A stretch of 63,274 nt of DNA, counting the filler. It is 5 parts of 5 records of this genome, joined end to end, with 100 filler letters (N's around TTAATTAATTAA, not from the genome) between each part and the next. Parts side by side here need not be neighbours in the genome. Positions count along the whole stretch, not along the records: positions 59,539 to 63,274 come from SRR20825010_1720; 4 more parts are not named here. The stretch is one strand, 5' to 3'. The position numbers and the translations under genes are program-made. Under the pieces are notes generated by a model. It made no database searches. It saw nothing but the letters and a program-made list of their open reading frames with translations, and was not told the origin of the DNA. Position 1 is the first letter of the stretch. Each line of letters begins with the position of its first letter. Below are positions 7,064 through 63,274 of this stretch, in pieces.

Positions 7064-8068
7064 ATGTTCAACGTTGCCATTGTTGCCTTTCCCAACTGCC
7101 ATGCCTCCGGTGTGCACGGCATCATGGATTTCTTCACCGTTGCCAACTTCTGCGGCCGCGCTCCGGCTGGCCGTAGCGAGCCCCTGTTTAATTGCCAGGT
7201 GGTGACGGTGGACGACCAGCCAGTCCGCGGGTACAGCGGCGCGGTGGTGACGCCAACCTGCAAGCGTGGGGATTTCGAGCCGGACCTGATCGTGGTGGGC
7301 TCCTCGGTGGAAGCCGCCGTGGGCGCGGAACGGCTGGAGAAGACGCTTGCACCCTCAAGACCGCTTTACGGCTGGTTGCGGGACGGGCTGGAAAGGGGCG
7401 CCGTGCTGGCGAGCGTCTGCACCGGCAGTTTCGTACTGGCGGAGGCGGGTTTGCTGGACGACCAGGTGGCGACCACCCACTGGCGGGCAGCGCCGCTGTT
7501 CCGTGCCCGCTATCCACACCTGCGCCTGGAGGAAGACCAGTTGCTGGTGGATAACGGCCGCATCATCTGTGCCGGCGGCGCCACTGCGTTTGTGGATCTG
7601 TGTAGTTACCTGGTGGAGCGCTTCTCGTCACCGTCGGTTGCCCTGGCCTGCAGCAAGATGCTGGTGCTGGACGGCCGCCGGGCGGAGCAAACGCCCTACA
7701 TGGCCTTCTACAGCCAGAAAGCCCATCAGGATGACGCTATCCGCAAGGCTCAGTCCTGGCTTGAACAGCACTACGCCGATGCACTGACCATCGACGAAGT
7801 GGCTGCCGTAGCGGGCCTCGGCACCCGCACCTTCAAGCGTCGTTTCAAGGAAGCCACTGGCGAAACCCCGATCGGCTACCTGCAGCATCTTCGGATCGAG
7901 GCGGCCAAGCACCTGCTGGAATCCAGCCGCGAACAGACTGCACGCATCATCTGGAGTGTGGGTTACGAAGATGCCAGTTCGTTCCGGAGGCTGTTTAAAC
8001 GCACGGTAGGCTGTACCATGGAGCAATACCGCAAGCGTTTCAGCTATGTATCCCCAAAAGTGGCCTGA
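7064..8068 (+). CDS. GlxA-family (DJ-1/PfpI + AraC HTH) transcriptional regulator
   Basis: [22 protein letters not shown] and C-terminal AraC HTH ([27 protein letters not shown]). Confidence 0.92.
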
Positions 8069-8103
8069 TGCCCCGACGATCCCCGACCGAAGACAGGACT
8101 CCC

Positions 8104-9051
8104 ATGCCCGGCAAAAACTCCACCCGCCTCAACAAATACATCAGCGAGAGTGGCATGTGTTCCCGGCGGGAGGCCGACCGCTATATCGAGAACGGCAACG
8201 TTGCCATTAATGGCAAGGCGGCCCAGGTGGGCGATCAGGTGCTGCCCGGTGACAAAGTCACGGTGAACGGTCAGTTGATCGAGCCGCGAGACGAAGAGGA
8301 CCTGATCTTTATCGCCCTCAACAAGCCCGTGGGCGTGGTCAGCACCACCGACCCGGCGGAGCGCCGTAACATCGTCAACCATGTGGGTCACGGTGAGCGG
8401 ATCTTCCCCATTGGCCGACTGGACAAGGACTCCCAAGGGCTGATTTTCCTCACCAGCAACGGTGATCTGGTGAACAAAATCCTGCGCGCGGGCAACAACC
8501 ACGAGAAGGAATACCTGGTCACCGTCAACAAGCCGGTGACCGCAGAATTCGTGCAGGGTATGAGCGCCGGGGTACCGATACTGGGCACGGTCACCAAACG
8601 CTGCCAGGTCGAAAAGGTGTCCCGTTTCGTGTTCCGTATTACCTTGGTTCAGGGCCTGAACCGACAGATTCGTCGCATGTGCGAGTTCTTTGATTACGAG
8701 GTCACGAAGCTCGAGCGTGTGCGCATCATGAATATCAGCCTCAAAGGACTAGCAGTCGGAGAGTGGCGGGATCTGGGGCCGAAGGAGTTGGCCGGGTTGT
8801 TTGACATGATCCGCGATTCGTCCTCGGAAGTGAGCTCCGATACCCGTAGCGAAACGAAAAAGCCGGTGAGCAAGCGGCCTGGCAAAAAGCCCCGGACATC
8901 GCCATCGGGACCTCGTGGAAAGGGCGTAAAGGCAGGACAGCCCGGTAGGCCAGGAAAGCCCGCTGGAAAACACGGCAAACCCTCGCGCCCGGGAAAACCC
9001 GGCAAGCCGGGGAAGCCACGCAAACCCAGGCAAAGCAGCGTTAAGCGCTAG
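8104..9051 (+). CDS. rluF: 23S rRNA pseudouridine synthase F
   Basis: S4 domain [18 protein letters not shown], catalytic [25 protein letters not shown] and a basic Pro/Gly/Lys tail. Start at ATG 8104. Confidence 0.92.
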
Positions 9052-56935: not shown

Positions 56936-58792
56936 TCAGCAACCTTGCTGAGTGGGTGTCGGTGAAAATCTGAGCCGTTGCTCGCCTAGCATTATATCGG
57001 GTAACAGGTTTGGAAGTGGCGCAACAAATTCAGGCTTGTCCTTGACCATTCGTTTGTTGGTTTCGGTACAGTAGTTCTCTGGATGCCATCTTCCGAGAAC
57101 TTTCCATTGTCTATCCTCATCGAGACCTAGGGCAATAACTTCGCCATAAGAAGACAAGATGATTTCGCTCTGTTCGTCCTTATTCAAATCTACAATACGT
57201 GCATTGCATTTTCCGGTTGGCGCTCGAAGGCAATCGGGAAGTTTTCCCTGAGACTCAGAGGACCAGTCCTGATTGATAAAAGATTCAGGCAGCGCTTGAT
57301 TTTGGTCGAGTAGCGTTATGTTTTTCTCCAATGCCCTGGCATTCGGGCGGGATACTGCTGCGTTGTATTTACTCCGAGAGTCTAGCGCAGCTTGAACATT
57401 TTCGTGCATCAATGCGCTGTCTTCCCCGTCATACTTCGACAGGCGTTCCAGCGCAGCCTTGCCATAACGTCCGCCATCCCAACGTAGACTCTTGAAGTCG
57501 AGTGTGGCGGCGTCAACTACTCCGCGCTCGAAGCGTGCCATTTGGCTCGATACGCCAATGCGTATGGGGTCCGCTATCGGGGTTAGAAGCATAATCATCA
57601 CAGCAAGAATGAATATGGCTGCGCAAAAATTCCAATCCTCTATCGTCTTGAGCCATGCCCCGCGCTGGAGTGCGGCATAGAAGTATCCAATGGCATAGAA
57701 GGCCGCGATGATAACGCAGGCAAAGGCCAGAACGCGCTCGCTGGTCCAGCCATATTGCTGTACGCGCAATATAATAGCATAGGCAGCGAGGACTGTGAGC
57801 GGCACAGGCACAAACATTGATGCCAGCGTCACGTAACGTAAAAGAGAGTGCGGCGCGCGCTCCGCAGCGCCGTCCTGATAAACGGCGTTGATGAGAATGA
57901 GTATGATGGCGGCGGAAGACAACATCAGAGCGGCGGCGCTCTGTGTGCCCCAAAGTAGCTGGATACCTGTGAAAGGCAATGCAAGCAGAAACCCGTAAAC
58001 GAGTAATGTGAGCAACGGCAAGAGCCATGACAGAAGCGTCAGCGCCAGAGTGCGTGCGCCGCGAATGAGGCCCGCATTGACATCAGTGATATGAAGGGCC
58101 CCAGCAACAACAAGTGCAGAGATGGGGATGGAAAACCATTCACGTTTCAAGAGTTCACTGAGAAACGTAAGTTTGATGATTTGAAATAGTTCTGCTCCAA
58201 GCCAAAGAAACGCCCAGAACACACCGACAAAGGCGGAGGTCAGCGCCACTTGAATGCCATGTTTCCAGGCCACATCAAAATGTGTTGGGTAGCTCGCTAT
58301 AAACTTACGTTCGCCATCACCACCCACGATCAATGTATGTGTGATGAACAAGCTTGCGGTCACTGATGCAAAAAAGAAAAAGGAAGGGATGATATGCGGT
58401 ACCCAACCGCTTTGATCCTTCATTGCGTCGCTGCCAAATTGGTTTTGCTGCGCGGCCTTGTATGACCAGTCGACTGGCCAAGCGTGCCAGATTTCGTAAA
58501 AGGCTAAAGCAGAAAGCGCAACGGTCGCGGAGACAAGCCAAAAAAGGAGTGTGCGAATGCGCATCGTACCCACCGCTTGAATGGCGATGAGCGGCACGAA
58601 TAATGAAACAATCAGCATCGGCGCAAAAAAGAGGCCGCTCGTAGCGGGCCACATTTTTTCTTCTATAGCGAGATAAAGGAGATATAGCGCCACACCTTGA
58701 ACTAAACCGATGGCAAGGCGAAGAGCGAATAGATTTTGCGCACGCGCTGGCGATAGAAAATTCTGATCGGGCATCAGACCTCGCAAAGACAA
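56936..58792 (-). CDS. DUF4153-like polytopic membrane protein
   Basis: More than 10 TM segments; LRVQQYGWT..R and DP.RI.V.SQ.AR; alternative start at ATG 58774. Confidence 0.72.
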   Translation of the reverse strand: MSLRGLMPDQNFLSPARAQNLFALRLAIGLVQGVALYLLYLAIEEKMWPATSGLFFAPMLIVSLFVPLIAIQAVGTMRIRTLLFWLVSATVALSALAFYEIWHAWPVDWSYKAAQQNQFGSDAMKDQSGWVPHIIPSFFFFASVTASLFITHTLIVGGDGERKFIASYPTHFDVAWKHGIQVALTSAFVGVFWAFLWLGAELFQIIKLTFLSELLKREWFSIPISALVVAGALHITDVNAGLIRGARTLALTLLSWLLPLLTLLVYGFLLALPFTGIQLLWGTQSAAALMLSSAAIILILINAVYQDGAAERAPHSLLRYVTLASMFVPVPLTVLAAYAIILRVQQYGWTSERVLAFACVIIAAFYAIGYFYAALQRGAWLKTIEDWNFCAAIFILAVMIMLLTPIADPIRIGVSSQMARFERGVVDAATLDFKSLRWDGGRYGKAALERLSKYDGEDSALMHENVQAALDSRSKYNAAVSRPNARALEKNITLLDQNQALPESFINQDWSSESQGKLPDCLRAPTGKCNARIVDLNKDEQSEIILSSYGEVIALGLDEDRQWKVLGRWHPENYCTETNKRMVKDKPEFVAPLPNLLPDIMLGEQRLRFSPTPTQQGC

Positions 58793-58801
58793 GAGGTTGG
58801 A

Positions 58802-59438
58802 TTACTTCTTCATAAGTTCCGCTTTGAGGTCGTTGCCGACGCCCTGATTGACGAACTCCAGTGTGAAGGCGCTATGCACATCGATGTCGGCGGGAAAGAC
58901 ACCTGTGCTAGACATTTCATTAGAGAAGGTCTGCCAGCGTTCTTCCGTCATGGCACCAATGCCGAGCGTTTCGGTGTCGCCGCTATCGACGATGCCGTAT
59001 TGTTTGAGCGTCTCAAGTCCATGTGCCAGAAGGGCATCTGTCATTTCCGGATTGTCTGCTTTGATTAGTTCATTGGCGGCAGTGTTGTCGCCATAGAGAT
59101 ATTCGACCCAACCTCTGATGCTGGCATCGACAAATTTCTGAACAACATCGGGATGCTCGGCAATCATGTCGTCAGTTGCCATGATGAAGGCGGCATAGCC
59201 CGGATAGCCATTGTCAGAGAGCAGAAAGACTTGAGGTTTGAACTTGCCTTGTTGCTCGATCGTGTATGGCTCGGACGAGAGGTAGCCTTCCTGAATTGCA
59301 GTCTTGTCGGTGAGAAAGGGGGCGAGGTTGAAAGTGTACTTGCGGATCTGGTCGTCGGTGAATCCATATTTGGCTTTGAGCCATTGCCAGAAGGAGCCGA
59401 CGGTCGCATCGGCGACAAGGATCGGTTTGCCCTTCATG
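58802..59438 (-). CDS. NMT1/THI5-like ABC substrate-binding protein, C-terminal part (5' truncated)
   Basis: YTFNLAPFL, GYLSSEPY, FVDASIRGW and IGAMT.ERW. Confidence 0.85.
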
Positions 59439-59538
59439 NNNNNNNNNNNNNNNNNNNNNNNNNNNNNNNNNNNNNNNNNNNNTTAATTAATTAANNNNNN
59501 NNNNNNNNNNNNNNNNNNNNNNNNNNNNNNNNNNNNNN
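59439..59538. other. Artificial contig linker
   Basis: N44-TTAATTAATTAA-N44. Confidence 0.98.
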
Positions 59539-59652
59539 CCCAGATTCACCACGTAAATCCCCGTTAGCCGGCATTATCAGTGGACCTATGGTTTTCTTCG
59601 TCAGAAGAATGAGCTAAAACGCGATAAGCCACTTACTGGATAGGATGCTCCC

Positions 59653-60279
59653 ATGCGCCGCGCGAAATACATGCCAACCGAGGACCGTCGTAACGAGGCT
59701 GTCGAGGCAGTCATTGACCTCGCCGCAGCGAAAAGCCCGGAAGACATCACAACCACGGCCATCGCCGGAAGAATGAAGTTCAGCCAGGGCGCGCTGTTCC
59801 GACATTTTCCGAGCAAGGACGCAATCTGGCGCGACGTCATGAACTGGGTTTCCGATCGCCTGTTTGAGCGCATCGACAAAGTTGCCGGCGCCGAGTCTGA
59901 TCCCGTAGCCGCGCTGGAGGCGATGTTCATGGCGCATGTTGGTTTTGTGGCCGAATACCCGGGCGCGCCGCGAATCCTGATGGGGCAACTTCAACGCACT
60001 GGAGCAACCCCGGCCAAACAGGCCGCGCAGTCCCTGACTACGAACTACGAAACCCGGCTTCGCCGCATACTGGCGGCAGGAAAAAGTTCCGGTGCCTTAC
60101 CTGCCAGTCTTGACGAGGCTGCCGCAGCGACGCTTTTTCTTGGCATGATCCAGGGTCTGGTGGTGCAGGCACTTATCAGTGGAGACCAGGCGCAGATGCT
60201 GGACAATGCACCGCGGGTGTTCGCGATCTATCGTGCTGGTTTACTGCAGGATGGGAAATTAACGAAGGAACGCGAATGA
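59653..60279 (+). CDS. TetR/AcrR family transcriptional regulator
   Basis: ITTTAIAGRMKFSQGALFRHFPSKD HTH. Confidence 0.9.
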   Translation: MRRAKYMPTEDRRNEAVEAVIDLAAAKSPEDITTTAIAGRMKFSQGALFRHFPSKDAIWRDVMNWVSDRLFERIDKVAGAESDPVAALEAMFMAHVGFVAEYPGAPRILMGQLQRTGATPAKQAAQSLTTNYETRLRRILAAGKSSGALPASLDEAAAATLFLGMIQGLVVQALISGDQAQMLDNAPRVFAIYRAGLLQDGKLTKERE

Positions 60280-60576
60280 GACCGGCGTTTGCGGTGCCGG
60301 ATCCGGCGGAAAGCCAGCACGGGATCGTCGAGCCACGACCGGTGGGACGGCTTTGTTCTGTCGCAGACCGAAGTTCACGTCACGACAGGACGCTTCCGTT
60401 CTGGCCATCAAGCTGAGAGCTATGCACTGGTAGTTACGGCCGCATCGCCAATTCCAATGTCATTAGGTGTACAAGACAGAAAATGAAACGTATCGTCTAG
60501 CCACCTTCCTTGCTCATGAATTCAAAATACCTTAACTTTGTTCAAGGTCGTAATTCATATACTACACAATTCTTGA

Positions 60577-61215
60577 TTATAAGCGTATTGCTTTCAAGAT
60601 CTGGTTGGCTGCATCGTCGAAGTCCGATTTCCGCAGGCGCGGCACCTCCAGAGTGGCAGCCACCACGGGTGCAAAGTCGGCATAGAACTGGGTCGTGGCC
60701 CATATCATGATGAAGAAATGCCTCGGATCCAATTCCGGAAACCGGCCTTCCGAGATCCACTGCTGGACCGCCTCGCAGGCTTCGCGCGTCACCTCCAGCA
60801 TGTGCTGGCGCTGCCGGCGCGACAGGAACTTGCCGCCGCGTAGCAGTTCGCCCGCGAAGAAACGTGATTGCGCTGCGTTCCGACGCGAACTCTCCAGCTT
60901 TTCGCGAACGTAATCCGCGAGCGCCTCGCGCGGGTCGCGTTCGGGGCGGATATGGCGTAAGGCCGCATCCCAGTCGCGAAAGACCTCCGCGATCAGCCGC
61001 TCATAGATCGCTGTCTTGGTCTTGAAATAGTAGTAGACGTTCGCCTTGGGTAAGCCCGATTCCTCGGCGATCTCGGAAATCGTCGTCCCGTCGAAGCCCT
61101 TGGCCGAGAACAGCCGGACGGAGACCTCGAGTATCTTCGCTTCGTTGCGCGCGCGGATCCGGCCTTCATTGTCTCCATCCGCCTTTTTCCGTTCGCCACC
61201 AGATTGACGTGCCAT
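60577..61215 (-). CDS. RutR-like TetR family regulator
   Basis: IAEESGLPKANVYYYFKTK, SRFFAGELLRG and HFFIMIWATTQFYADF (RutR C-terminal signature). Confidence 0.85.
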   Translation of the reverse strand: MARQSGGERKKADGDNEGRIRARNEAKILEVSVRLFSAKGFDGTTISEIAEESGLPKANVYYYFKTKTAIYERLIAEVFRDWDAALRHIRPERDPREALADYVREKLESSRRNAAQSRFFAGELLRGGKFLSRRQRQHMLEVTREACEAVQQWISEGRFPELDPRHFFIMIWATTQFYADFAPVVAATLEVPRLRKSDFDDAANQILKAIRL

Positions 61216-61296
61216 GCTGCCTGTCCGCTTTCAATGCCTAGTTTCGGCCTGTCTTAGCAGCTTCAGTGCGCAGGGCAAGAACGCCCTCTACAAAAT

Positions 61297-61346
61297 CTGA
61301 CGTTATCGTCAGGTTTATCGAAAATAAAACTTGACGAAATCGTCAG
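61297..61346. promoter_or_regulatory. Twin RutR-box-like operators
   Basis: CTGACG-TTAT-CGTCAG (61297-61312) and TTGACG-AAAT-CGTCAG (61331-61346); same geometry as TTGACC-N4-GGTCAA. Confidence 0.72.
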
Positions 61347-61380
61347 GATCGTCTTCCCTTGAGGCAGCAGGGAGACGACC

Positions 61381-62229
61381 ATGACAACGACATTGCGCCA
61401 CGCACTGTCCGAGATGACCGCAGGTTGGAAGGACGACCTTCCGCCCGACTGGCGGTCGGTGATGGACCATGTACGGACCGGGGTCTACGAGGTCGATGAA
61501 GGCCTGGACCTGGAGGTTTGGGAGCCGATCTTCCCCGCGCGAAAGGGTCGGACCTTCCCCGGAGCTCCCAACGGCGCCCACATGCTCCGAGCCTTCGACG
61601 ATGTGCGCGCCGACAGCGTGCGGGTGGTACTTCTCGGACAGGATCCCTACCCCGAACCTGCCGCTGCGACCGGACGCGCCTTCGAGATCGGCAACGCGTT
61701 GGTCTGGCGCGACCTCGACCGCATGTTCTCGAAGTCAATCCGGGCGTGGACCCAGATGCTGATGGCAGCCCGTCACGAGCGCCCCGAACTGTCAAAGAAT
61801 TTTGCGGCCTGGTCGGAAATGCTCGACGAAATAGAGGCCGGGACCATGGCCATCGAGGCGCCGACGGAGATGGCGGACCGGCAACAACGTGAAGGCGTCC
61901 TGCTGCTGAACTCGTCGCTTACGCTGAGCCGCTTCCGGCGGGACATCGACCCGCACCAGGCGCGCGGCCATGTTCCGTTCTGGGCACCGATGATCCAGGC
62001 GGCGCTTCGGCATGTCGCCAGCCAGGGACGCCCGGTCGTCTTCGTGGCGCTCGGGCAGGCCGCAGCCGACAATCTCGAGGCGGCAGGGTTGCTGCCAGCA
62101 CGAGAACCGCACCTGTCGTTGGTTCTGCCGCATCCGGCCTATGCAGAGGAATTCCTCGCCTGCCCCAATCCGTTCCTTGCCACCAATGCGCACCTTGCGC
62201 GCATGGGTGAACAGCCGATCGACTGGTAG
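61381..62229 (+). CDS. Uracil-DNA glycosylase family 1-like protein (divergent)
   Basis: VVLLGQDPYP, ATGRAF, GVLLLNSSLTL, PHPAY and NPF...N..L..GEQPIDW. Confidence 0.82.
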   Translation: MTTTLRHALSEMTAGWKDDLPPDWRSVMDHVRTGVYEVDEGLDLEVWEPIFPARKGRTFPGAPNGAHMLRAFDDVRADSVRVVLLGQDPYPEPAAATGRAFEIGNALVWRDLDRMFSKSIRAWTQMLMAARHERPELSKNFAAWSEMLDEIEAGTMAIEAPTEMADRQQREGVLLLNSSLTLSRFRRDIDPHQARGHVPFWAPMIQAALRHVASQGRPVVFVALGQAAADNLEAAGLLPAREPHLSLVLPHPAYAEEFLACPNPFLATNAHLARMGEQPIDW

Positions 62230-62236
62230 ACACATC

Positions 62237-63274
62237 ATGACAAAGACTTACGATTTCATAGTGGTTGGAGCCGGATCTGCAGGCGCGGTGCTCGCCAACC
62301 GCCTGAGCGCCGACGGCCGCCACAAGGTCCTGCTCCTGGAGGCCGGCGCAAGGGACAGAAATCCGCTAGTTCGGTTGCCGATGCTGATGGGCAAGCTGTT
62401 TCATTCAGGACTCTACAACTGGCACTATAACACAGAGCCCGAGCCGCACCTGAATGGGCGCAAGCTCTACTGGCCGCGCGGAAAGGTGCTCGGCGGTACA
62501 TCCACGATCAACGGCATGATCTATGTGCGCGGCAACCGGCATGACTATGACCGCTGGGCGCAGCTAGGACTGCCGGAGTGGAGTTACGAGAAGGTTCTGC
62601 CCGCCTTCCTGAGATCGGAAACCAATCCGGAGCGCGGTGACGGTGAGTATCACTCCACGAAGGGCGAACTGACTGTGTGCAGGGCTCGGTCGAAGAACGG
62701 CTTGTTCGACACGTTCATCGAAGCCGGCGAACAGGCAGGTCTTCCGTTCAACGACGATTTCAACGGCGAAGCGCAGGAGGGTGTCGGTCGTTACGACTTC
62801 ACGATCCGTAATGGTCGGCGCTGGTCCACATCGTCGGCCTTTCTCAAGCCCGCCGAGAAAAGATCGAACCTAACTATCCTTACCGGCGCACACGTGACCG
62901 GTCTGACTTGGGAGGGAAGCCGCGTGACAGGCGCCACCTGGTTCCGCAACGGGCGTCCGGAAAGTGCGACTGCGGCGCGCGAGGTCATCGTTTCAGGCGG
63001 TACAGTAAACTCTCCGCAACTGCTGATGCTTGCCGGTATCGGCCCCGCCGCGCACCTCGCTCAGCACGGCATCACGGTCCGGAAGGATCTGCCCGGCGTC
63101 GGGCAGAACGTCCAGGATCACGTCGATTGCGTGATGAGTTGGGAGTGCAAGCAGCCGGTCACGCTTTACAGCGATCTGCGCATTGACCGTCTGACGGCCT
63201 CAATGATCCAAGCCATGCTCTTCGGAACAGGGGTGGTCACGACATTCCCCTATGAAGGCGGCGCATTCCTGCGC
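62237..63274 (+). CDS. GMC family oxidoreductase (choline dehydrogenase-like), 3' truncated; absent from the ORF track
   Basis: Read by hand: MTKTYDFIVVGAGSAGAVLANRLS...WPRGKVLGGTSTINGMIYVRG...SPQLLMLAGIGP...GVGQNVQDH; no stop before the window end. Confidence 0.92.
   Translation, partial: MTKTYDFIVVGAGSAGAVLANRLSADGRHKVLLLEAGARDRNPLVRLPMLMGKLFHSGLYNWHYNTEPEPHLNGRKLYWPRGKVLGGTSTINGMIYVRGNRHDYDRWAQLGLPEWSYEKVLPAFLRSETNPERGDGEYHSTKGELTVCRARSKNGLFDTFIEAGEQAGLPFNDDFNGEAQEGVGRYDFTIRNGRRWSTSSAFLKPAEKRSNLTILTGAHVTGLTWEGSRVTGATWFRNGRPESATAAREVIVSGGTVNSPQLLMLAGIGPAAHLAQHGITVRKDLPGVGQNVQDHVDCVMSWECKQPVTLYSDLRIDRLTASMIQAMLFGTGVVTTFPYEGGAFLR

Follow-up and report, generated by a model that had tools for sequence, protein, structure and literature searches.

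We report that a 3.7 kb contig (SRR20825010_1720) within a stretch of 63,274 nucleotides of joined genome sequence, here called the window, carries three genes that are predicted to be the front of an operon dedicated to the uptake and use of a pyrimidine nucleoside or nucleobase. The genes encode a TetR-family regulator related to RutR, a protein with the fold of uracil-DNA glycosylase (UDG; referred to as the UDG-like protein) and an oxidoreductase of the GMC family, and judging from the sequences the operon is locally repressed and serves a pyrimidine nucleoside or base. Specifically, the UDG-like protein, which is without the DNA-probing loop, probably acts on a small uracil-containing molecule and not on DNA. 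Moreover, we regard it as an evenly balanced proposition that this is the first clade of the UDG superfamily with a metabolic, non-DNA substrate, that it forms, together with the GMC enzyme and a NIPSNAP protein, an undescribed route of pyrimidine catabolism distinct from the reductive, the Rut and the molybdenum-dependent oxidative pathways, and that the regulator, as a paralogue of RutR, is adjusted to a uracil derivative.

Conserved gene order of the operon

Eighteen orthologous loci (L001-L015, L148, L149 and L252) were compared using Pfam matches and a tblastn synteny table, and the genes beyond the end of the window were read from the 92%-identical locus L001. The full order, i.e. the regulator gene on the opposite strand followed by the genes for the UDG-like protein, the GMC oxidoreductase, NIPSNAP, a Bmp binding protein, a double ATP-binding cassette (ABC) ATPase and two BPD_transp_2 permeases, is present in 14/18 loci. 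These span 47-92% identity to the UDG-like protein of the window, with the order persisting down to 47-50%. The GMC gene lies directly 3' of the UDG-like gene in 17/18 loci (it is missing in L002), NIPSNAP is present in 16/18 and a divergent regulator with a TetR_C_3 domain in 15/18. An earlier description of the window by a model, the sequence-only reading, had proposed a survey of these neighbourhoods; run as above it brought out transporters and a conserved gene order, and the neighbours are not variable. This survey is decisive, and the reading of the UDG-like gene as an ordinary repair ung is therefore contradicted.

The tail of the operon differs between loci. It encodes an Amidohydro_1 protein in L001, L003, L004, L005, L007 and L252, a RihA-like nucleoside hydrolase together with an Amidohydro_1 protein in L006 and L148, the RihA-like hydrolase alone in L008-L011, and a glyoxalase-fold protein together with thymidine phosphorylase in L012. 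On these assignments the last gene product (amidohydrolase, RihA-like hydrolase or thymidine phosphorylase) would make or deaminate a free base. The amidohydrolase is of the TRZ/ATZ type, with MTA/SAH deaminase, 8-oxoguanine deaminase, atrazine chlorohydrolase and unnamed amidohydrolases as its nearest relatives, and it passed no equivalog cut-off. The solved relatives of the Bmp-type binding protein include the atrazine-binding protein 6pi5 and Treponema TpN38(b) (4iil), the latter presumably a riboflavin binder, and Bmp-family proteins also bind free bases. The closest solved NIPSNAP relatives carry only the names 'hypothetical' or 'uncharacterized'. Ordinary salvage operons with Bmp/PnrA nucleoside importers and RihA-type hydrolases have the same kinds of transporter and tail genes; the present operon differs from these in that its binding protein has only remote solved relatives (≤90 bits) and its nucleoside hydrolase scores below the RihA cut-off. 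Furthermore, we know of no counterpart of the UDG-like/GMC/NIPSNAP trio in ordinary nucleoside salvage operons.

Deviations from the common order are seen in a few loci. In L002 (8183-10644), the UDG-like gene (77% identity to that of the window) and NIPSNAP are situated between two genes for CDA-fold deaminases, and both the GMC gene and the operator-like boxes described below are absent; genes for an NMT1/THI5-type ABC transporter, a CoA-transferase, an enoyl-CoA hydratase and an FAD-oxidoreductase are found nearby. In L014, from a gammaproteobacterial metagenome-assembled genome (MAG), an MFS transporter, a TonB receptor and an NCS1 nucleobase permease replace the ABC importer. In L015 the place of the regulator, divergent from the UDG-like gene, is taken by an IPNS-type 2-oxoglutarate (2OG) oxygenase, for which thymine dioxygenase is the 9th best solved relative (E 6e-34). 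Finally, in L013 (10847-12886) the GMC gene is cut after about 150-185 amino acids (aa) by a DDE transposase of an insertion sequence, with an IS66-family transposase beyond.

The UDG-like protein

Our data suggest that the UDG-like protein is a distinct family-1-like UDG clade. It matches the Pfam UDG family weakly (31.3 bits; cut-off 24.3), its scores on the five NCBIfam ung models (58.3-81.6 bits) all fall short of the respective cut-offs (143-237), canonical Ung proteins are 25-30% identical to it, and solved Ung structures match it at E 1e-12 or weaker. A word-indexed search gave 1023 relatives, the best 120 of which are 274-310 aa long, 49-92% identical and mostly from Rhizobiales, plus Variovorax and others; an exhaustive search of representatives gave 1542 matches at E≤1e-3, 195 at E≤1e-10 and 50 at E≤1e-30. 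The named members at greater distance belong to MAGs of Gammaproteobacteria and Acidimicrobiia and to Rhodobacterales. The automatic annotation is uracil-DNA glycosylase for all of them, and matches in the ESM Atlas were to clusters of this name only.

The AlphaFold (AF2) model, computed with an alignment of 82 sequences (A1), has a predicted local distance difference test (pLDDT) score of 96.1 and a predicted template modelling (pTM) score of 0.93. Its top Foldseek matches are all family-1 UNG (TM-score 0.5-0.6 on the query, 20-26% identity), the first being the unconventional enzyme of Nitratifractor salsuginis (5x3g), so the fold is that of family-1 Ung/UNG. When the profile is aligned with E. 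coli Ung by hhalign (probability 99.7), D88, Y90, F101, N177 and H251 align with Ung D64, Y66, F77, N123 and H187, i.e. the catalytic Asp and the Tyr of the water-activating GQDPY (G86-Q-D88-P-Y90, aligned with Ung 62-66), the stacking Phe, the uracil-reading Asn of LLLN and the leaving-group His of the HP motif. These residues are retained in the 82-sequence alignment (D88 79/82, Y90 78/82, F101 81/82, N177 81/82 and H251 79/82). The motifs GQDPY, ATGRAF, LLLN and HPAYAE listed in the sequence-only reading were all recovered, and the insertion that it placed after ATGRAF corresponds in the profile alignment to 7 aa directly past AFE.

The likeness to Ung in the uracil pocket is set against differences elsewhere. 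Three insertions were identified relative to Ung: one upstream of 11 aa with a conserved GAPxGAH (residues 55-65), the one of 7 aa past AFE (103-109), which carries the conserved G104 and W109, and a helix of ~20 aa (about 135-155). Residues W16, W24, P52, T97, E102, W109 and H197 are family-specific and conserved in A1, with W16, W24 and P52 invariant, and R54, R70, R99, E102, R121, R131, R184, D190, H192 and H197 are invariant among 15 orthologues. The family-specific residues and the three insertions point to a rebuilt substrate site.

In Ung, phosphates are pinched by serines of the Pro-rich loop and the Gly-Ser loop and by two serines of the intercalation loop, and the GQDPY Tyr excludes 5-substituted uracils. 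The minor-groove intercalation loop of Ung, HPSPLSAHR, reads HPAYA---E in the UDG-like protein; it is three residues shorter, has lost the Leu and both Ser (S189A, L191A and S192 in the deletion) and is followed by an acidic residue. In the Gly-Ser loop, the window protein has Gln at the place of the Ser, and this position is variable in the family. Among 194 family proteins of 265-312 aa, HPSP[LFM] occurs in none, while HPAx[AG][DE] occurs in 116 (112/120 closer relatives and 4/74 distant ones), and the median net charge of these proteins is -6.

Three proteins (P0160, P0205 and P0294, the last from Pseudorhodoferax, the one source named) have a domain of ~235 aa fused N-terminal to the UDG-like domain. 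It carries the motifs IRLWLGWR and GLPxExALLGY and has a stand-alone homologue, P0295, in a Rhodocyclaceae MAG. This domain gave no Pfam match, shows no likeness to the NIPSNAP profile and is absent from all loci examined, and its structure model is poor (pLDDT 52). Four other apparent fusions, P0125, P0154, P0243 and P0149, look like frameshifted or chimeric gene calls and were discarded.

The GMC oxidoreductase

The GMC fragment in the window matches GMC_oxred_N with 183.7 bits, and its full-length orthologues are 544 aa with the GMC_N and GMC_C domains that are shared with BetA-type enzymes (9lq0, 8b7s). Among solved structures it is closest to an oxygen-dependent choline dehydrogenase (9lq0, 457 bits) and a chloramphenicol-inactivating oxidoreductase (8b7s, 374 bits), with pyridoxine 4-oxidase and 5-hydroxymethylfurfural (HMF) oxidase further down; enzymes of this group oxidise primary alcohols. 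The full-length L001 enzyme scores above the cut-off of the broad NCBIfam 'choline dehydrogenase' subfamily model (666.1 vs 605 bits) and below that of the betA equivalog (602.8 vs 732.1 bits).

A GMC profile (A2) matched 192 of 401 genomes sampled from the class at E≤1e-150, and scores of 1052-1069 bits were obtained only in the three genomes that have the UDG-like gene (3/3 vs 0/398), the next best score being 740 bits. Unlike BetA, the operon GMC has no bet genes nearby, and a gap of >300 bits to the next GMC in the 401 genomes sets it apart as a separate orthogroup. For the next 17 GMC loci (47-52% identity to the L003 GMC) there is no UDG-like, NIPSNAP or TetR gene within 1.5 kb on each side. 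On these scores the enzyme forms a private orthogroup that co-occurs solely with the UDG-like gene in the 401 class genomes. A plain choline dehydrogenase, which the sequence-only reading had named as an outcome that would speak against it, is thus contradicted by the failed betA equivalog and the separate orthogroup.

The regulator and its putative operators

The regulator matches TetR_C_3 (117.3 bits) and TetR_N (55.5 bits) in Pfam. Its best NCBIfam models are two RutR models, both under their cut-offs (133.6 vs 368 and 125.4 vs 230 bits), and among solved structures it is closest to E. coli RutR (3loc, E 3.7e-32). The divergent RutR-type TetR gene of the sequence-only reading is hence borne out, both by the coordinates of the open reading frames and by the RutR models. 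The domain architecture, TetR_N plus TetR_C_3 (YcdC-like), is that of RutR; the closest known regulators are E. coli RutR and PydR of Pseudomonas and Rhizobiales, which are discussed in the accessible part of PMC4325133. According to the same part of that source, the residues of E. coli RutR that are important for uracil binding include Trp77 and Trp167. Gln171 and Lys101 form hydrogen bonds with uracil, as does Gln179 from the other subunit; Leu74 aids uracil binding and Leu78 clashes with the methyl group of thymine. Tyr79 of the same source has no counterpart at index 79 of the RutR chain and did not enter the comparison.

In RutR numbering, W77, K101, W167 and Q171 are retained in 15/15 regulators (the window and 14 orthologues). 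The position of L74 is Phe, Leu or Ile in 14/15, with Arg in L014, and in 14/15 L78 is changed to Asp (D83 in the numbering of the window protein) and Q179 to Val or Leu (V184 in the window protein), L014 again being the exception. The regulator would accordingly keep the residues that read or stack on the O2/N3/O4 face of uracil, and differ from RutR where residues face C5 and N1.

The two palindromes reported by the sequence-only reading between the divergent genes were found at the positions given in Table 1. The two lie as direct copies whose starts are 34 bp apart, and no other perfect match to TGACG-N4-CGTCA is present in the window (63 kb). If up to 1 mismatch is allowed, the number of matches is 8, where 2.65 would be expected, and 0/100 shuffles attained this number. 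Paired TGAC-N6-GTCA boxes, 33-34 bp apart, are present upstream of the UDG-like gene in 13/15 of the loci L001-L015, with the exceptions of L015, which has one box and a degenerate copy, and of L002 and L014, which have none. L252, the further locus covered, also has the pair, and GGTCA half-sites occur in several orthologous loci. In five whole genomes (3.9-7.6 Mb) the two-box pattern is found solely at the UDG-like operon (5/5), once per genome except in G005, and the reversed control pattern gave no match in the same genomes. The second pair in G005 is positioned after NIPSNAP and before bmp (L012 12834-12880, corresponding to G005:C6:403054-403100), which suggests that the transporter genes there are under separate control.

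As far as the accessible part of PMC2952853 shows, the RUT box is a 16-bp palindrome with which the boxes of the window share T-7, G-6, A-5 and C-4 and the TTGAC...GTCAA frame, while positions -3 and -2 differ. Taken together, the regulator probably binds the two palindromes. The arrangement differs from that of RutR in having two tandem boxes, and the putative target is the UDG-like operon, not rut, pyd or carAB. The supplement of PMC5343134 that was consulted has no glycosylase or NIPSNAP entry, and its sole GMC entry is a target of the PsrA regulon and not of RutR; PMC12709175, as far as it was available, concerns another system.

Distribution

The family profile detected the UDG-like gene in 3/401 sampled genomes of the class and in 2/401 genomes of the phylum sample, one of these being the reference genome (the unpublished genome G245 is among the 401 genomes and was counted in the tallies only). 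In contrast to the housekeeping Ung, the UDG-like gene is consequently a rare accessory gene in a transport/catabolic operon. All five host genomes have 2-5 UDG-superfamily matches each, including that of the UDG-like gene itself where it scores, and the other matches give 68-132 bits on Pfam UDG.

A scan of metagenomes with the family profile returned almost solely canonical Ung, as its pattern had been taken from the GQDPY strand that the two have in common; L068 was the only family member recovered. Among viral contigs no close family member was found, only Ung-like matches at 23-32% identity. One viral contig, L150, encodes a UDG of 254 aa (1527-2288) between a helicase fragment and lambda-type portal/terminase genes; with 29% identity to the window protein it was rejected as a member of the clade. 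Barbiturase (PF09663) was found in 0/5 host genomes, in a search that gave no match in 14 control genomes either and so had no positive control. No literature on this operon, or on a non-DNA substrate for the UDG superfamily, was found in the full-text collection searched.

Organization of the window

The features of the contig are listed in Table 1. The region between the regulator and the UDG-like gene is 165 bp, and reading of the open reading frames confirmed that the GMC gene starts 7 nt after the UDG-like stop codon, as had been described before. An Rfam search of 59400-63274 gave no RNA family.

Table 1 Features of contig SRR20825010_1720 (window 59539-63274)
Feature	Position in window	Strand	Comment
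RutR-paralogue TetR-family regulator (predicted)	60577-61215	-	212 aa; divergent from the UDG-like gene
Putative operator box 1, perfect 16-bp palindrome CTGACGTTATCGTCAG	61297-61312	.	Pattern search
Putative operator box 2, perfect 16-bp palindrome TTGACGAAATCGTCAG	61331-61346	.	Nearer the UDG-like gene
Shine-Dalgarno-like GGGAGA	61370-61375	+	5 nt before the ATG of the UDG-like gene; read from the sequence
UDG-fold protein, family-1-like, first gene of the operon	61381-62229	+	282 aa; TAG stop 62227-62229
GMC flavin adenine dinucleotide (FAD) oxidoreductase, first 346 aa	62237-63274	+	ATG at 62237; cut by the end of window and contig
TetR gene with TetR_C_24 domain	59653-60279	+	208 aa; adjoins the RutR paralogue

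The contig is separate from the preceding parts of the window, to which it is linked by an artificial joiner, N...TTAATTAATTAA...N, at 59440-59538. Because the locus sits on its own 3.7-kb contig, the genes upstream of 59440 are possibly not its physical neighbours. These are a fragment of an NMT1/THI5-like binding protein (58802-59437, minus strand), cut by the N run before the joiner, and an open reading frame of 618 aa (56936-58792, minus strand) without a Pfam match, the translation of which looks like a multi-pass membrane protein. On the contig itself, the pair formed by the TetR_C_24 TetR gene and the RutR paralogue recurs in L001 at 7488-8114.

Proposed function and alternative explanations

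Our preferred reading, for which we see the chances as about equal either way, is that the UDG fold works here as an N-glycosidase that frees uracil from a small nucleoside-type molecule, in partnership with the private GMC enzyme. The inducer would be a uracil derivative and not plain uracil. The UDG-like protein would be a cytoplasmic enzyme, not one of duplex-DNA repair, in which the intact uracil pocket and the Asp/His pair cleave the N-glycosidic bond of a small substrate such that uracil is freed. The role of its GMC partner would be to oxidise an alcohol, either on that substrate or on the sugar left after cleavage; in one version it turns the 5'-CH2OH into a carboxylate, which stands in for the DNA phosphate and may be held by the conserved arginines of the UDG-like protein. 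The NIPSNAP protein would act on the product. The broader proposal of the sequence-only reading, i.e. a glycosylase fold recruited to pyrimidine salvage or catabolism and coupled to a GMC enzyme under a RutR-type regulator, is supported by the conserved neighbours, the private GMC and the unique boxes.

Several points weigh against our preferred reading. Every step of the mechanism is inferred, and the 18 loci are not independent (L001-L005 and L008-L010 are closely related). The distant family member L068 (35% identity) has an unrelated gene context. The main weakness is that a second nucleoside-cleaving enzyme looks redundant since the tail genes already cleave nucleosides, unless the UDG-like enzyme takes a substrate that the tail enzymes cannot; this gives room to the alternatives considered below. 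The NCS1 nucleobase permease in L014 suits a free-base substrate better. S119, which aligns with Ung Ser88, is kept in 75/82 sequences as the sole retained pinching Ser, and because all the catalytic residues of a glycosylase are retained along with S119 an activity on single-stranded DNA (ssDNA) or oligonucleotides is still conceivable. Moreover, a canonical ung was detected only in G001 (266 bits), so that 4/5 hosts are without one above the cut-off.

Among the alternatives, a pathway for 5-hydroxymethyl pyrimidines, the version put forward in the sequence-only reading, is in our estimation unlikely. Here a deaminase and/or the UDG-like enzyme would yield 5-hydroxymethyluracil (5hmU), the GMC enzyme would oxidise its CH2OH to formyl or carboxyl, a step that we liken to the fungal thymidine-salvage route, and the regulator would sense 5hmU. 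The Asp that replaces L78 in 14/15 regulators, at the residue said in the accessible part of PMC4325133 to clash with the thymine methyl, could hydrogen-bond to the 5-CH2OH. The deaminases in the operon or beside the UDG-like gene would fit, and so would the L015 2OG oxygenase with thymine dioxygenase among its solved relatives. The same applies to the solved relatives of the GMC enzyme (choline dehydrogenase, chloramphenicol oxidoreductase, pyridoxine 4-oxidase and HMF oxidase), which are primary-alcohol oxidising enzymes. However, the GQDPY Tyr, the residue that blocks 5-substituents in Ung, is kept in 78/82 sequences, the 2OG oxygenase is found in 1/18 loci only and thymine dioxygenase is not the closest of its solved relatives. 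Furthermore, the operon showed no iso-orotate-type decarboxylase, its amidohydrolase belonging to Amidohydro_1 (TRZ/ATZ type), and the viral contigs yielded no close family member. On these points the specific substrate of the sequence-only reading, 5hmU from nucleosides or phage-type DNA, is no more than conceivable.

Equally low in our ranking is the idea that the trio acts on a free base, with the UDG fold as a uracil-binding module that might, for example, add water at C6 and with the GMC enzyme dehydrogenating the product, giving an oxidative route independent of molybdenum. It is favoured by the alternative tail genes (RihA-like hydrolase, thymidine phosphorylase and base-type deaminase), which all end in a free base while the sugars differ, by the presence in L014 of the NCS1 permease and not the Bmp importer, and by 6pi5 and 4iil among the solved Bmp relatives, given that Bmp-family proteins also bind free bases and that 4iil binds riboflavin. 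Yet we know of no such non-glycosidic chemistry for the UDG fold, the retention of both the Asp and the His of a glycosylase fits bond cleavage more simply, and barbiturase was not seen in the five hosts, although that search lacked a positive control.

We consider it less probable again that the UDG-like protein is a uracil glycosylase of DNA or oligonucleotides, co-induced with pyrimidine uptake, which would protect the genome at high dUTP or strip uracil from ssDNA. The conserved catalytic pentad and S119, the family-1 UNG fold and the four host genomes without canonical ung are in line with this. On the other side stand the shorter and acidic intercalation loop with its two serines and the Gly-Ser serine gone, the other UDG-superfamily genes in the same genomes, the rarity of the UDG-like gene, and its tight linkage to a private GMC and NIPSNAP, which a role in repair leaves unexplained. 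Finally, a chance adjacency of an ordinary ung and an ordinary choline dehydrogenase, as could be read from the automatic annotation as uracil-DNA glycosylase and from the L001 GMC passing the broad subfamily model, is highly improbable given the order conserved in 17/18 loci, the failed betA equivalog and ung models, and the co-occurrence of this GMC only with the UDG-like gene; both ordinary readings are contradicted by the conserved order and the private orthogroup.

Significance

To our knowledge, the UDG superfamily is a textbook family of DNA repair, the members of which act on DNA. If the preferred reading of a small-molecule N-glycosidase is true, the operon would show how a fold known from DNA repair is taken over by small-molecule metabolism, a gap in bacterial pyrimidine catabolism would be filled, and the name 'uracil-DNA glycosylase', which is systematically given to these proteins in the databases, would be corrected. 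Bacterial NIPSNAP proteins gain a testable context. Cultured hosts exist (Hoeflea olei JC234 and Labrys sp. KNU-23), and the proposal is therefore directly testable.

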